DNA from: Escherichia phage DCP2
Direction: 5' to 3' (one strand)
Length of the DNA: 64,000 nucleotides
Sequence record: OR780565.1
In this document: positions 19,811 to 28,834 of the stretch, piece after piece
Position numbering within the stretch: the stretch's first letter is position 1
How the letters are laid out: every line of letters starts with the position of its first letter
Notes under the pieces: generated by a model
Databases searched by the model: none
The model's input: the letters and a program-made list of their open reading frames with translations, nothing else
Told to the model about the DNA's origin: nothing
Made by a program: the position numbers and the translations under genes

Positions 19811-20044
19811 ATGAAAACTTACCAAGAATTTATTGCTGAAACTGCTGATGTAAAAGTTGAGTTTATTTACACTGGCAAGAAAGATAAAATGGGTGAAATG
19901 CCTCATGGAGTTCTTCGTGATGCATTAGATAATTTCGGTCAACTCGCCGCAGAAGATTACGGTGATAAAATTGTTGTTACTGGTCCTGCTGCAGTTATTG
20001 AAAAATGGGCAGCAGAAAATAAATCAATTTTTCGTAAAAAATAA
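19811..20044 (+). CDS. ipI: Internal protein I-like (capsid-targeted, injected)
   Basis: N-terminal MKTYQEFIAE capsid-targeting leader; position between 57B and the tRNA region. Confidence 0.75.
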   Translation: MKTYQEFIAETADVKVEFIYTGKKDKMGEMPHGVLRDALDNFGQLAAEDYGDKIVVTGPAAVIEKWAAENKSIFRKK

Positions 20045-21042: not shown

Positions 21043-21068
21043 GGGCTCTTTCCTGAGAGCCTTTGTTA
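21043..21068 (+). terminator. Rho-independent terminator-like hairpin
   Basis: ggctct-ttcctg-agagcc stem-loop followed by tttgtt. Confidence 0.4.
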
Positions 21069-21086
21069 ATAATTGGGAATCATATT

Positions 21087-21695
21087 ATGGATACTAAATT
21101 AGCTGAAATTTTTGAAGGAAAACATCCAAATTTTAGTACAGGAAAGCTGAAAGACAAAATAATAAAAGAAAATATTTTTCCATATGAGTGTGCAATTTGT
21201 AAAATTTCAAAATGGCAAAATAAGCATATTGTTCTGCAATTAGACCATATTGATGGAAATAACAAAAATCATCTTAAATCAAATTTAAGATTATTATGTC
21301 CAAATTGCCATTCGCAAACTGATACTTTTGCTGGTAAAAATATTAAAAATAATAAAAAGCGTTATAATGTTAGTGATGAAGAAATTTTAAACGCATTATT
21401 AAATTCGGCTACTATATCATCTGCAATTACTTCATTAGGTTTAAGTAAAGGCGGAAACTATAAAAGATTCATTAAAATTGCTAATGATAATAAATTATAT
21501 CATTTACTGGTAAATATTAATGAAAAGATTTTAACTGATGAAATTTACGAAGAATTAGTTAAAATCGATTATTCTAAATTTGGATGGGTTAGTAAAGCTG
21601 CTAAAATAATAGGTATAAGCCCACAAAAAGCTAGAAAATGGATAGAACGAAAATGTCCAGAATTGATAGAACAATCTTTTTCACGTAATAAATAA
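21087..21695 (+). mobile_element. Free-standing HNH homing endonuclease-like gene next to the tRNA array
   Basis: Cys-box plus HNH motif: CAICKI...LDHIDGNNKNH...NLRLLCPNCH. Confidence 0.7.
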
Positions 21696-21701
21696 TATAG
21701 A

Positions 21702-21788
21702 GCGAGAATGGTCAAATTGGTAAAGGCACAGCACTTAAAATGCTGCGGAATGATTTCCTTGTGGGTTCGAGTCCCACTTCTCGCACCA
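21702..21788 (+). tRNA. tRNA-Leu (anticodon TAA), CCA encoded
   Basis: Acceptor GCGAGAA/TTCTCGC, anticodon loop CTTAAAA, long variable arm, T-arm GGTTCGAGTCC. Confidence 0.85.
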
Positions 21789-21793
21789 AATTT

Positions 21794-21867
<74 letters not shown>

Positions 21868-21876
21868 ATTTAATTT

Positions 21877-21950
21877 ACTCCGTGTAGCTCAGTTTGGTAG
21901 AGCGCCTGATTTGGGATCAGGAGGTCCAAGGTTCAAATCCTTGTATGGAG
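21877..21950 (+). tRNA. tRNA-Pro (anticodon TGG)
   Basis: Anticodon stem-loop CCTGA-TTTGGGA-TCAGG, T-arm GGTTCAAATCC. Confidence 0.8.
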
Positions 21951-21952
21951 AC

Positions 21953-22043
21953 TGGAGGCGTGGCAGAGTGGTTTAATGCACCGGTCTTGAAAACCGGCAG
22001 TCGCTCCGGCGACTCATAGGTTCAAATCCTATCGCCTCCGCCA
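21953..22043 (+). tRNA. tRNA-Ser (anticodon TGA), CCA encoded
   Basis: Anticodon stem-loop CCGGT-CTTGAAA-ACCGG, long variable arm, T-arm GGTTCAAATCC. Confidence 0.85.
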
Positions 22044-22048
22044 GTTTT

Positions 22049-22124
22049 GCTGATTTAGCTCAGTAGGTAGAGCAACTCACTTGTAATGAGAAGGTCGGCG
22101 GTTCGATTCCGTCAATCAGCACCA
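22049..22124 (+). tRNA. tRNA-Thr (anticodon TGT), CCA encoded
   Basis: Acceptor GCTGATT/AATCAGC, anticodon loop CTTGTAA, T-arm GGTTCGATTCC. Confidence 0.85.
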
Positions 22125-22125
22125 A

Positions 22126-22200
22126 GGCCCTGTAGCTGGAAGGTTCAAGCAAGCGACTCATAATCGCCAGATGGTGGTTCAATTCCACCCAGGGCCACCA
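22126..22200 (+). tRNA. tRNA with anticodon CAT (Ile by analogy with T4, or Met), CCA encoded
   Basis: Acceptor GGCCCTG/CAGGGCC, anticodon loop CTCATAA, T-arm GGTTCAATTCC. Confidence 0.8.
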
Positions 22201-22209
22201 AATTAATTT

Positions 22210-22296
22210 GGGGAGTTATCCCGTAGAGGTAGCGGTGTGGACTGTAAATCCATTGTCATTGCGACTCGGGTGGTTCGACTCCACCACTCCCCACCA
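22210..22296 (+). tRNA. tRNA-Tyr (anticodon GTA), CCA encoded
   Basis: Acceptor GGGGAGT/ACTCCCC, anticodon loop CTGTAAA, long variable arm, T-arm GGTTCGACTCC. Confidence 0.8.
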
Positions 22297-22300
22297 ATTT

Positions 22301-22375
22301 GGATGTGTAGCTCAATGGCAGAGCGATCGCCTGTTAAGCGATTGGTTATAGGTTCGAATCCTATCACGTCCGCCA
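22301..22375 (+). tRNA. tRNA-Asn (anticodon GTT), CCA encoded
   Basis: Anticodon stem-loop TCGC-CTGTTAA-GCGA, T-arm GGTTCGAATCC. Confidence 0.85.
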
Positions 22376-22489
22376 AATTTGTGACAACTGTCACATTAAT
22401 ATCTACTTGACGCGATTATAGGGGTTGAACTGATCACTCTTCTCTTAATTTCGTGTGAAGACATCTTGATTGTTGGAGTAGGTATTAAT

Positions 22490-22565
22490 GTGGCCGTAGT
22501 TCAGTTGGTAGAACTCGAGATTGTGATTCTCGTAGTCATGGGTTCGACTCCCATCGGTCACCCCA
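22490..22565 (+). tRNA. tRNA-His (anticodon GTG), CCA encoded
   Basis: Extra 5' G pairing with discriminator C, anticodon stem-loop CGAGA-TTGTGAT-TCTCG, T-arm GGTTCGACTCC. Confidence 0.8.
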
Positions 22566-22569
22566 ATTA

Positions 22570-22645
22570 CGGGGCATAGCTCAGAAGGAAGAGCAAGGAC
22601 CTTCTAAGTCCTAGGTCGTAGGTTCGATCCCTACTGCCTCGACCA
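22570..22645 (+). tRNA. tRNA-Arg (anticodon TCT), CCA encoded
   Basis: Anticodon stem-loop GGAC-CTTCTAA-GTCC, T-arm GGTTCGATCCC. Confidence 0.85.
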
Positions 22646-22663: not shown

Positions 22664-23014
22664 ATGAAAGGTAATGTTTATTTAGTAGTTCATGATTTAA
22701 CATTCTATTTTAATCATAATGATACTGTTATTTCTGAACGTGTAATTAATTTGCTTTATCAGCATGCAGATTATGTTTATGTCGAAAACGAATATGGTCA
22801 TTGGCAATTTCTCAAAAATCGTTCATTTGGTTTAGATGGTTACGAATATTTTGATCGTAAAGACCTTTTAGATACAATTCCGTTATCTACACAATATCAA
22901 AATCATAAGTCTTTACATAAATGCCGGCTAATTCGAAATGCTGAATCCGCGTATGAAGCAATTGATTTGTGGCGTAAACGCCGTGAATATATTGATTCTT
23001 TAAAAGAATATTAA
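22664..23014 (+). CDS. Hypothetical protein
   Basis: 116-aa ORF with SD gaggaaaat upstream, directly after tRNA-Arg. Confidence 0.5.
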   Translation: MKGNVYLVVHDLTFYFNHNDTVISERVINLLYQHADYVYVENEYGHWQFLKNRSFGLDGYEYFDRKDLLDTIPLSTQYQNHKSLHKCRLIRNAESAYEAIDLWRKRREYIDSLKEY

Positions 23015-23178
23015 GAAACCGGGTCGCTACCGGTAAGTCGTCGGACTGATGTTCCCTGGAGTATAGTTTCCTCCCACAGTTTTACTGTGTTCTGGCTCTT
23101 TACTATCACAGCAGAAACGGCGCACCGAATTATCGATTCGAGGAAATATCTTTGCCGTAAGCCGAGTAGCGTTTTTGA

Positions 23179-23270
23179 CGGAACGTTCGGATATGGTCGA
23201 GATATGGCCTTTTAAAAATATTGAGTAGCGTCAACTACTTAATAACCGGGTTCGAATCCCGGCGTTTCGT
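23179..23270 (+). ncRNA. Candidate tRNA-like structured RNA in a GC-rich non-coding stretch
   Basis: Canonical T-arm CCGGG-TTCGAAT-CCCGG; flanks CGGAACG/CGTTTCG can form a 7-bp acceptor stem; no clean D or anticodon arm found. Confidence 0.25.
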
Positions 23271-23322
23271 ACAAACACTTGCCTTAGCAGGTGGAACCCC
23301 GACAAGGTTGCCGCAAGGCTTA

Positions 23323-23349
23323 GCCCCGACCGAAAGGTTGGGGCTTTTT
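23323..23349 (+). terminator. Rho-independent terminator
   Basis: gccccgacc-gaaa-ggttggggc hairpin followed by ttttt; identical copy at 23880-23906. Confidence 0.7.
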
Positions 23350-23351
23350 GG

Positions 23352-23359
23352 TATAAATA
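23352..23359 (+). promoter_or_regulatory. Late promoter TATAAATA upstream of an internal-protein-like gene
   Basis: Exact TATAAATA 39 nt upstream of the ATG at 23398. Confidence 0.5.
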
Positions 23360-23397
23360 TTAGTATATTAAATCTACAAATTAAAACAGGAAATAAG

Positions 23398-23871
23398 ATG
23401 AAATCATATACTCAATTTTTAAATGAAGCGGTGTTAAATGAAGCATCTAGCACCGAAATTCAAGCTGTTGCAAAAGCTGCCATTGCCGCGGGTAAATATT
23501 CCTATAAAGATGCTTCTGATGAATCGCGATTCCAGTTTGCACGCGACATGAAAGCGGAAGGATTTACGGGAAATGCAGTTAGTATGGCCTGGAAAAGTTT
23601 AGTTGCTACTGGCGCTGCTTTTGCAAAGGCTTCGGGTAAACCTGCTCCTAAAGCAGATCCTAAAGCGGCACAAGAAAAAAATATCGTTAAAGGAATTATC
23701 GCTAAATATGAAGCTATCCTTAAAGAGCTTTTAGTAATCAAAACCGAAGGCCAAAAGTTAGCCCGTGCTTATAGTTTCAAAGATAATCCACATGTTCACT
23801 CTCTTGAGTATGTTGAAGACATCCAAAAAATTATTAAAGACCGCATTTGGTCTGCTAAACAAATCAAATGA
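23398..23871 (+). CDS. Internal-protein-like capsid-targeted protein
   Basis: Starts MKSYTQFLNEA (capsid-targeting leader pattern); the ORF-track start at 23221 is rejected. Confidence 0.6.
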   Translation: MKSYTQFLNEAVLNEASSTEIQAVAKAAIAAGKYSYKDASDESRFQFARDMKAEGFTGNAVSMAWKSLVATGAAFAKASGKPAPKADPKAAQEKNIVKGIIAKYEAILKELLVIKTEGQKLARAYSFKDNPHVHSLEYVEDIQKIIKDRIWSAKQIK

Positions 23872-23879
23872 CATTCTTA

Positions 23880-23906
23880 GCCCCGACCGAAAGGTTGGGG
23901 CTTTTT
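23880..23906 (+). terminator. Rho-independent terminator (second copy)
   Basis: Same gccccgacc-gaaa-ggttggggc-ttttt element as at 23323. Confidence 0.7.
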
Positions 23907-23996
23907 AGTTTGAATCACTCGGATAACGCTGTTACGGATAGTAACAAAGTAATAAATAATTAATAACCAACCGATAAATTATTTCAAGGATTTTAA

Positions 23997-24560
23997 ATGA
24001 AAACCTATGCCGAATTTTTAACCGAAGCAGCAAAATTACCATCTGAAGCAGATCTTACTAAAGTATTCTTCCAATTGGACCCAAAAGACCGCGGCGATTT
24101 TCTTAAGTGGAAAGCTAAAGCTATTGAAATGTACAACATCGATAATAGTTCTTTTACAATGAGTCAAGAAAATAAATTCAATAAAGCATTTTTCAAAATT
24201 TCTAAGAAATTGGCATCTGGCGCTCAGGTTCCTAAATCTGTGTTAGCTACTCCTGAACGCGCACCTGTTAAAATTTCTAAGAATATGTTCGACACTAAAA
24301 AATACGTTAATGCTTTGAATAAAGCTCTTGATGCATTGGATGATGCAAAGAAGGCAGCCCGCGATCTTCAAGACGTGTACACCGATTTTGACCGCAAAAC
24401 TAAAGGTTCTATTTCAAATAGCGAACGCAATAGTGTAAGTGTTTATTCTGATAGCCTTGATGTTCTTGGCGATGCGTATACTGAAATTAAAAATCGTATT
24501 AACACTGCATCTAAGCTAAAAGCTGCTGCAGAAGCTATAATAAGTAAACTAGGTAAATAA
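23997..24560 (+). CDS. Internal-protein-like capsid-targeted protein
   Basis: Starts MKTYAEFLTEA; 187 aa, Lys/Ala-rich. Confidence 0.6.
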   Translation: MKTYAEFLTEAAKLPSEADLTKVFFQLDPKDRGDFLKWKAKAIEMYNIDNSSFTMSQENKFNKAFFKISKKLASGAQVPKSVLATPERAPVKISKNMFDTKKYVNALNKALDALDDAKKAARDLQDVYTDFDRKTKGSISNSERNSVSVYSDSLDVLGDAYTEIKNRINTASKLKAAAEAIISKLGK

Positions 24561-24568
24561 TTTTAAAT

Positions 24569-24594
24569 CCCTATCTAAATGATAGGGCTTTTTG
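24569..24594 (+). terminator. Rho-independent terminator
   Basis: ccctatc-taaat-gataggg hairpin followed by ctttttgg. Confidence 0.65.
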
Positions 24595-24716
24595 GTATCT
24601 AGGCCTTTCTGGACCTCTCTAGGCATCATTTAGTTTATACCCTTTATAATATATTATCCTATCCTTTAATTGCCCATCCCTGCCCTAGAATTCCCTAAAA
24701 ATTTTTTCACAAAACT

Positions 24717-25154: not shown

Positions 25155-25748
25155 ATGAACACACTGAAGAAAATTGTTGAGTTTATTCGCACTAAACTTG
25201 GTTCTGCTATGGCTAAAAATCTATCTGTCGAAGAACAGTATACTGCTGCAGCAGCAAAACTACTTGATAAAATTAAAGATCTAAAAACTGCTTCTGTTAA
25301 ATCTATTAACGAAGAAAAACGTATTCGTGAACTTGTTATCGAAAAGAATCGACAGGCCGAATCAAAAGAGCGTGAAATTCGTAAACTTCTTTCCGAAGGC
25401 CAAGATGTAACAATGCATGCTAAACTCGGTTTACTATATCGTCGAACAGCTGAGCAGTTGACTACTAAGGCTGACGGTTATGCTGAAATGCGAATTGAAA
25501 TCGCCAAGAAAGTAGTTGAGTTAGATGATGCTCGTCAAGAACTTGCGGTTAAATTGGAATATATCCGTGAAACTCGTGCAGCAAATGCCCTTGGAATTAG
25601 TACTGCCGATGATGTAGTTGAAATTGCAGCACTGACTAAGGTTGATATTGAAGATACCCTTGCTCGAGTTGAAACCTTTAACGGTAATATTTCTGGGGTT
25701 GAAACTACCTCTGCCGATGTTCAGGAATACATTAATTCTCTGAAATAA
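25155..25748 (+). CDS. Coiled-coil protein
   Basis: 197-aa ORF, largely heptad-like charged/Ala-rich sequence; SD aaggaaat upstream. Confidence 0.5.

Positions 25749-28031: not shown

Positions 28032-28834
<803 letters not shown>

Follow-up and report, generated by a model that had tools for sequence, protein, structure and literature searches.

The locus

The stretch of DNA analysed here comprises 64,000 nucleotides (nt) of Escherichia phage DCP2, a T4-like phage of the genus Tequatrovirus (record OR780565.1). This entire stretch is referred to as the window, and its + strand corresponds to the T4 early direction. Directly 3′ of the tRNA/rnaC operon, the window carries a cassette of ~1.24 kb that is inserted exactly after the terminator of this operon and contains two open reading frames (ORFs), ORF-A and ORF-B. 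Their products are probably members of an unnamed and unrecognised family of capsid-targeted internal proteins of T-even phages, encoded at a third polymorphic locus between the tRNA/rnaC operon and e.8.

In 5′ to 3′ direction, the operon is preceded by 57B, the ipI locus, and trna.4-.2, followed by an HNH-type ORF, ten tRNAs (21702-22645), an ORF of 116 amino acids (aa), and rnaD/rnaC. On the other side of rnaC, ORF-A and ORF-B are followed by e.8 (24790), e.6, e.5 and further genes up to nudE, e, and denV. The features of the cassette and its borders are given below, with predicted cleavage sites and sequence junctions marked by a slash here and in the text.

23133..23271, + strand: rnaC-like stable RNA, last gene of the tRNA operon; 99.3% identity to T4 rnaC over 139 nt
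23322..23349, + strand: terminator of the tRNA/rnaC operon, repeat copy 1; 10-bp stem, GAAA loop, T5; the same hairpin follows rnaC in T4
23341..23354, + strand: 14-nt boundary repeat GGGCTTTTTGGTAT, left copy; T4 and the window diverge immediately 3′ of it (sequence comparison, junction table)
23352..23359, + strand: T4-type late promoter TATAAATA, exact; 38 nt 5′ of the ORF-A start, overlapping the end of the terminator tail
23398..23871, + strand: ORF-A, 157-aa precursor with the start MKSYTQFLNEA; ATG start; match to phrog_2280 with E 2e-60 (2.3e-60)
23398..23442, + strand: predicted ORF-A propeptide MKSYTQFLNE/AVLNE/A with two gp21-type sites (after Glu10 and Glu15), according to the motif rules of PMC9026906
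23879..23906, + strand: terminator after ORF-A, repeat copy 2; identical to copy 1 over 31 nt
23951..23958, + strand: AATAAATA, a 7/8 match to the late promoter 5′ of ORF-B; conserved in 4/4 ORF-B loci examined, of doubtful function
23997..24560, + strand: ORF-B, 187-aa precursor with the start MKTYAEFLTEA; ATG start; match to phrog_2280 with E 2e-53
23997..24026, + strand: predicted ORF-B propeptide MKTYAEFLTE/A, codons 1-10, according to the motif rules of PMC9026906
24569..24593, + strand: terminator after ORF-B with a different 7-bp stem and the same tail (hairpin-plus-T-run scan)
24585..24598, + strand: 14-nt boundary repeat GGGCTTTTTGGTAT, right copy; T4-shared sequence (CTAGGCC... toward e.8) resumes

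An earlier note on this DNA had described ORFs beginning with MKSYTQFLNEA and MKTYAEFLTEA at 23398 and 23997, an exact late promoter before the first gene, and a 27-nt element shared by the first two terminators. Both ORFs are present at these positions, TATAAATA is found at 23352-23359, and the identity between the terminator copies even extends to 31 nt (23319-23349 and 23876-23906). The hairpins were said to follow the two genes, which holds for those at 23879 and 24569, while the hairpin at 23322 belongs to the upstream tRNA/rnaC operon. Overall, six terminator-like sites were found in the 2.6 kb scanned, compared to 2.0 ± 1.4 in shuffled sequences. Each start codon is preceded by an AGGA-type ribosome-binding site at a distance of 6-7 nt. 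A 216-aa TTG-initiated version of ORF-A, which was suggested by the ORF finder, would read through rnaC and the terminator and was rejected as an artefact.

Leader peptides and predicted mature proteins

In IPIII of T4, the first 10 residues are sufficient for packaging, including the packaging of foreign proteins; residues 4 and 7 are responsible for head targeting, and residues 8 and 10 for processing by gp21 at the motif L/I-x-E (PMC9026906). Both leaders of the cassette keep Y4, F7, L8, and E10 followed by Ala. Thus, the determinants of targeting and cleavage are retained. The earlier note had ascribed the leader MKTYQEFIAE to all three T4 internal proteins. This is correct for IPII and IPIII, which carry MKTYQEFIAE/A, but not for IPI, which has a longer leader of 19 residues, MKTFKEFTSTTTPVSTITE/A. 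ORF-A and ORF-B share the 10-residue form MKTY.EF(I/L).E/A with IPII and IPIII and have the same functional positions. In contrast to these two proteins, ORF-A has a probable second gp21-type cleavage site, L13-N-E15/A; such a second site (ILNE/A) is also found in a 93-aa internal protein encoded elsewhere in the window.

A six-frame translation of the window contains the leader pattern MK.[YF].[EQ]F..[ET] four times. In the complete genome of phage ZN18, which is 100% identical to the window over the cassette region, it occurs five times, compared to 0.005 occurrences per genome in 200 shuffles and 0.006 calculated from amino-acid frequencies. Two of the three other leader-bearing ORFs of ZN18 are annotated as internal virion or head proteins, and a head maturation protease and head scaffolding proteins, corresponding to the gp21/gp22 type, are encoded according to the annotation of this phage. 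Position 8, which had been left free in the search pattern, is I or L in 43 of 45 distinct leader coding sequences, while the codons vary synonymously at positions 3 (ACA/ACC/ACG/ACT), 4 (TAT/TAC), 7 (TTT/TTC), and 8 (ATC/ATT/TTA/TTG). This combination indicates selection on the leader peptide rather than mere DNA homology. Leaders of more distant genera, such as MLNFKEFITE...MITE/A and MKFKEFLAE/A, all end with [LIVM]-x-E followed by A, S, or Q. A leader with one or two cleavage sites is kept in members from Karam-, Kanagawa-, Winkler-, Marfa-, and Dhakavirus as well as from Klebsiella phages; for this comparison, Karamvirus was represented by PG7 and PS49 and Dhakavirus by JS98 and IME08, and Klebsiella and Yersinia phages were also included.

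Cleavage at Glu10 is predicted to produce a mature ORF-A protein of ~16.0 kDa with an isoelectric point (pI) of 9.5 and 13.6% Lys, and the predicted mature ORF-B protein has ~19.6 kDa, a pI of 9.5, and 14.7% Lys. The predicted net charges are +7 and +9, respectively. In size, charge, and Lys content the mature forms resemble those of IPII and IPIII, with 19.6 kDa for ORF-B compared to 20.4 kDa for IPIII.

Cassette structure and allelic states

The sequence after the rnaC terminator reads ...GGGGCTTTTTGGTAT/CTAAGCC... in T4, where the start of e.8 lies 307 nt behind the rnaC motif. The window has this terminator too; here it continues with GGTAT/AAATA, which creates the late promoter. After ORF-B, the tail of the third terminator reads GGGCTTTTTGGTAT/CTAGGCC, where the T4-like sequence resumes. 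As this 14-nt direct repeat is present at both ends and its right copy is followed by T4-like sequence, ORF-A and ORF-B are regarded as one cassette.

A comparison of the locus across T-even genomes, which had been proposed in the earlier note, revealed three allelic states bounded by GGGCTTTTTGGTAT or by the repeated terminator, in addition to family members in other genera. T4 has an empty site, and a gene is likewise lacking there in T2 and T6. ORF-A alone, flanked by two terminator copies, is found in the Yersinia phage fD1, in RB32, and at one further locus (L005); in these phages, terminator copy 2 is followed by GGTATCTAGG as in T4. Both genes are present in the window, ZN18, and phiE142. 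Accordingly, ORF-A and ORF-B form a dispensable polymorphic cassette with repeated flanks, as is typical for T4-type internal proteins. In the annotation of RB32, the ORF-A orthologue ORF133c is described as 'flanked by 34 bp imperfect direct repeat' and left hypothetical; the annotators named Ip4, Ip5, Ip7, and Ip9 in the same genome but gave no Ip name to ORF133c.

A replacement of ipII/ipIII by ORF-A/ORF-B was considered and rejected, because ORF-A co-occurs with IPII- or IPIII-type genes, for example at L004, L007, L008, and L010, and shows no anticorrelation with them across 15 loci. Homologues of the Ip1-3 cargo were found neither in the window nor anywhere in the ZN18 genome.

More than 20 GenBank phages match the 1.7 kb surrounding ORF-A and ORF-B with 100% identity, among them D5505, DalCa, ZN18, and the BASEL phages Paracelsus and WilhelmHis (Bas35); HP3 likewise shows 100% identity over the cassette. 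An exact match to 12 kb of the window was not found in the GenBank phage collection, in which the best match reaches 97.8%, and the genome is thus a mosaic.

Promoters

On the + strand of the whole window, exact TATAAATA occurs eight times. Directly after a terminator hairpin, it precedes the first gene of the locus in 8 of 10 ORF-A homologues and in both 205-aa homologues from Dhakavirus. Among five more distant genera, the promoter is exact in two and reads (G/C)ATAAATA in three, so that all members examined have it, exact or one base off, at the first gene of their locus. At the two classical loci, the ip genes either follow early-type promoters of the form GTTTAC...TAnnAT or are translationally coupled to e. 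While T4 ipII/ipIII are preceded by such an early-type promoter, a late promoter is the only one recognisable at the locus of ORF-A and ORF-B. The classification of these promoters as early or late follows general knowledge of T4 promoters.

Protein family and domain structure

ORF-A, ORF-B, and the 205-aa Dhakavirus protein encoded at the same site match PHROG 2280 end to end (E 2e-60, 2e-53, and 6e-60). This PHROG bears the label "unknown function" and differs from the labelled internal-protein PHROGs 8111, 3499, 7857, 5341, 4363, and 3155. At least six other T4-like genera encode family members of 195-218 aa at the same site. All counts refer to the GenBank phage collection, in which near-identical genomes are over-represented: 596 records contain e.8, 511 ORF-A, 164 ORF-B, and 144 the 205-aa relative. 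Among the matches listed, the latter three are termed "hypothetical protein" or are unannotated. In the RefSeq entry of ZN18, the other two leader genes of the window are named, while ORF-A and ORF-B are without a name. In IMG/VR, 10 related loci were found.

Searches with the mature parts of ORF-A and ORF-B against T4 Ip1-3 by BLASTP and tblastn aligned the leader only, and the PHROGs differ. The earlier note's suggestion of new cargo domains is in line with this lack of detectable similarity to Ip1-3, and with the absence of an Ip name where Ip4, 5, 7, and 9 were named. For the same two reasons, ORF-A and ORF-B are not considered orthologues of characterised internal proteins, which the note had set as an outcome that would disprove its view. 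Comparisons with Pfam and NCBIfam gave sub-threshold noise only, and a sequence search of the PDB gave no informative match. With the ORF-A model, Foldseek returned no PDB match at E <= 0.001, and the matches in BFVD were confined to its own family.

The AlphaFold (AF2) model of ORF-A (predicted local distance difference test, pLDDT, 75) consists of a disordered low-confidence leader, a small helical N-domain (18-75), a linker rich in Pro, Ala, and Lys, and a C-terminal helical hairpin (88-154). The model of ORF-B has a similar three-part layout with low confidence (pLDDT 58). An initial profile comparison of the leaderless proteins was weak (probability 11%). After distant members had been added, the C-terminal hairpins of ORF-A and ORF-B aligned by hhalign with the leaders removed (probability 91%, E 1e-6). 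A close or recent duplication was rejected, as BLASTP aligns just the leader. According to the profile comparison, ORF-A and ORF-B are old, diverged paralogues sharing the C-terminal helical domain. The 204-205-aa proteins are related to ORF-B over the full length, and the proteins P0010 and P0009 from Klebsiella and Yersinia phages combine an N-domain of the ORF-A type with a C-domain of the 205-aa type. These relationships indicate that the family is modular.

In more distant genera (Kosakonia 305, Marfa, PG7, PS49, and CHI14; L021-L025, ~1480-2160 of each), the family gene is located directly after the tRNA cluster. The linker of these proteins consists of ~50 residues of Ala/Pro/Lys repeats resembling histone-H1-like DNA-binding tails.

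Virion evidence

The Yersinia phage fD1 encodes ORF-A alone as g140 with 98% identity. In the virion analysis of this phage using liquid chromatography-tandem mass spectrometry (LC-MS/MS), g140 was above the strict threshold for particle-associated proteins (Skurnik et al., PMC8309999, Table S3). The orthologues of Ip1 and Ip4 in fD1, g146 and g129, passed the same threshold (PMC8309999). Among further virion proteomes in the literature nothing usable was found, and the fPS-2 paper does not contain one.

Comparison with known internal proteins and inhibitors

ORF-A and ORF-B resemble the genes for IPII and IPIII of T4 in being non-essential cassette genes in the polymorphic region near e and nudE. 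Beyond the leader, however, there is no sequence similarity, and the locus is rnaC-e.8 instead of e-denV as for T4 ipII/ipIII. T-even proteins that are unrelated except for a common capsid-targeting sequence date back in the literature to Repoila et al. 1994 (cited in PMC3012670). Ip4-Ip10 are also described as small unrelated ORFs with nothing but the leader in common (cited in PMC3012670 and PMC12373910). The annotation notes of RB32 additionally report hyperplastic loci for them, with conserved or repeated flanking blocks and swapping among phages. These proteins are encoded at the two loci known from T4 (57B-trna.4 and e-denV), whereas ORF-A and ORF-B occupy a third one. From Ip8 and Ip10, ORF-A and ORF-B are distinguished by annotation and locus only (annotation of T2, T6, and RB32).

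The proteins Ip1, Ip2, and Ip3 are inhibitors of GmrSD type IV restriction enzymes, each of a different one (Silas et al. 2025, PMC12373910). Another leader-bearing protein, Bas37_0260, is encoded at the ipI locus and has been shown genetically to be an inhibitor of McrBC (HIDEN-SEQ preprint, bioRxiv 10.1101/2025.11.20.689424). Like ORF-A and ORF-B, it comes from outside T4 and is related to Ip1-3 by the leader only, and it extends the class to other type IV systems than GmrSD. It differs from them in its locus, and its mature part is unrelated to theirs.

ORF-A and ORF-B thus differ from the class in three respects: the third locus, a family conserved across genera, and a late promoter only. 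The novelty consists in a new family and a new locus within a known class; the principle itself is not new. Injected internal proteins have, since 2025, come to be seen as a main anti-restriction arsenal of T-even phages. Silas et al. (2025, PMC12373910) refer to "the two Ip loci", and the published catalogue of Ip1-10 was built from T4-defined loci, to which a third is added here. The family is present in more than 500 sequenced T-even genomes and in ~144 records of the 205-aa branch, all of them annotated as hypothetical where the matches listed carry an annotation.

Proposed function and alternative explanations

Packaging of ORF-A and ORF-B is likely. To the whole sequence of late expression, leader-mediated entry into the prohead, cleavage by gp21, retention with the DNA, and co-injection we assign a probability of about 0.7; cleavage and injection are steps that we infer. 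Transcription would start late at TATAAATA abutting the terminator of the tRNA operon, and ORF-B would be reached by read-through or from a weak promoter of its own. The 10-residue capsid-targeting sequence would then take the two precursors into the prohead's scaffolding core. There, gp21 would cut after Glu10 (L-x-E/A) and, in ORF-A, probably also after Glu15; for a cleaved ORF-A orthologue, AVLNEASSTEIQAVAK or ASSTEIQAVAK would be expected as new N-terminal peptides. The basic, Lys-rich mature proteins of ~16 and 19.6 kDa released in this way would stay in the head with the DNA and would be ejected with it into the next host.

In the host cell, each protein may block one nuclease that attacks modified T-even DNA, either a type IV enzyme or a similar one, by analogy with Ip1-3 and Bas37_0260, and the divergent N-terminal domain would confer target specificity. 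Such a specific inhibition by ORF-A and ORF-B is possible, with odds slightly short of even. The suggestion of the earlier note that these genes are anti-restriction candidates agrees with the precedent of Ip1-3 (PMC12373910) and Bas37_0260 and is plausible by analogy.

Several observations weigh against packaged and injected nuclease inhibitors. The weakest link is the expression of ORF-B, which has no exact late promoter and lies behind a strong terminator. The proteome of fD1 is permissive, with 113 of 277 gene products scored as particle-associated including denV, nudE, and the lysozyme e (PMC8309999). The detection of g140 therefore raises the odds of packaging only modestly, and for ORF-A this proteome is supportive but short of decisive. 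With regard to a defence target, ip4-10 were tested and no GmrSD target was found (Silas et al. 2025, PMC12373910), which shows that the leader does not guarantee one. In the PDB and BFVD searches there was also no fold or sequence similarity to IPI* or any known inhibitor; as the known Ips are mutually unrelated, this does not exclude an inhibitor function. Furthermore, an identity of at least 95% is seen in 345 of 511 records for ORF-A and in 163 of 164 for ORF-B, and the locus is occupied across genera, which fits a general role as well as an effector in an arms race. Mere binding of DNA would also be compatible with the basic charge and with the Pro/Ala/Lys-rich linker, which comprises ~50 residues in the 201-218-aa members.

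These latter points lead to an alternative in which the proteins are packaged via their leader, but serve as general DNA-associated head proteins for charge neutralisation, condensation, aid in ejection, or non-specific protection and have no defence target. Such a role corresponds to the classical view of IPII and IPIII. It agrees with the composition of the mature forms (pI 9.5, net charge +7/+9, 14-15% Lys) and with the linker of the 201-218-aa members, which is expanded to ~50 residues consisting of (A/P)K repeats. Synteny across many genera of Tevenvirinae and an identity of mostly at least 95% within Tequatrovirus are likewise unlike a fast-evolving inhibitor, and in T4 heads, contacts between internal-protein lysines and the phosphates of the DNA are known from nuclear magnetic resonance (NMR) work cited in PMC3012670. 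However, T2, T4, and T6 are fully viable without the family, which can therefore not be a needed structural component. The same argument for a general role was once made for Ip2 and Ip3, which later turned out to be specific GmrSD inhibitors (PMC12373910), and the polymorphism in presence, absence, and domain combination resembles that of accessory anti-defence cassettes. Overall, a purely general role is rather unlikely, though it deserves consideration.

It is far less probable, and in our view barely credible, that the leader is a recombination footprint, i.e., a shared DNA module of initiation region and first codons, and that the products are late proteins of the usual cytoplasmic kind that stay outside the head. 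Between ORF-A and ORF-B, the ribosome-binding site and leader region are indeed similar in DNA (42 nt, 74% identity), and a 54-aa ORF of ZN18 that lies beside the primase gene in the early region also starts with MKTYKEFIKE, so that the motif also occurs beyond the proven head proteins. Counting against a footprint, amino-acid determinants are kept while the codons at positions 3, 4, 7, and 8 vary, and distant genera with diverged DNA keep an aromatic residue at position 4, F or I at position 7, and L/I-x-E followed by A or S. In addition, the 10-residue leader of T4 alone packages foreign proteins (PMC9026906), and the ORF-A orthologue of fD1 co-purifies with virions (PMC8309999).

A more far-reaching version of the reading as injected proteins, which we regard as unlikely, is that, among the injected internal proteins of T-even phages, PHROG 2280 is the ancestral one and the one conserved most widely. 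It would have been overlooked through its loss in T2, T4, and T6, would be modular, and would counter a class of defence other than the GmrSD enzymes assigned to Ip1-3. In this case, the C-terminal hairpin and the linker would serve the association with head and DNA, and the exchangeable N-domains of the ORF-A type and the ORF-B/205-aa type would provide specificity. The absence of the family would then contribute to the narrow host range of laboratory T-even phages on wild strains. Irrespective of this, ORF-A and ORF-B are candidates for orphan pairs of defence and counter-defence, which bears on the choice and engineering of therapeutic T4-like phages, and natural isogenic-like variants exist in the form of empty sites, ORF-A alone, and ORF-A with ORF-B.

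Other leader-bearing genes

The two other genes of the window that encode the leader are located at the classical loci.

19811..20044, + strand: 77-aa gene with MKTYQEFIAE/T at the ipI locus, where T4 has ipI; phrog_8111 'internal virion protein', a recognised family
28553..28834, + strand: 93-aa gene with the leader followed by /SILNE/A at the e-denV locus; phrog_3499, 'internal head protein' in many records

In size and position, the 77-aa ORF (19811-20044) corresponds to 'Ip6' of T6. It is preceded by an early-type promoter (GTTTAC...TAnnAT) without TATAAATA. The ATG of the 93-aa ORF overlaps the stop codon of the lysozyme gene e (ATGA), which suggests translational coupling to e. Its product is ~48% identical to 'Ip5', whose gene in T2, PP01, and AR1 is found at the other of the two classical loci. 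In D5505, this ORF is absent and e adjoins denV.

Outside the window, the 54-aa ORF of ZN18 (gp118; L015:22991-23155, - strand) is located beside the primase gene in an early-gene region and has the start MKTYKEFIKED, which matches the capsid-targeting sequence well. Either this ORF encodes a very small internal protein that has gone unrecognised, or it signals that the motif also occurs outside head proteins.

Neighbouring genes

Of rnaD, only the two ends are kept in the window (23014-23051 and 23105-23126 within the region 23014-23271), with a different middle between them. Rfam contains no family for the stable RNAs rnaC and rnaD. The 116-aa ORF (PHROG 3355; 22664-23014, + strand) is inserted between tRNA-Arg and rnaD. 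At the other end of the tRNA cluster, a homing-endonuclease-like ORF of the HNH type (210 aa; 21063-21695, + strand) ends 6 nt 5′ of tRNA-Leu. It occupies the position of tRNA-Gln in T4 and D5505, and neither ARAGORN nor blastn detected a tRNA-Gln in the window. Downstream of the cassette, the conserved e.6 homologue (197 aa; 25155-25748, + strand) is labelled 'host specificity protein' in several GenBank records, and its homologue in fD1 (g137) was also scored as particle-associated.

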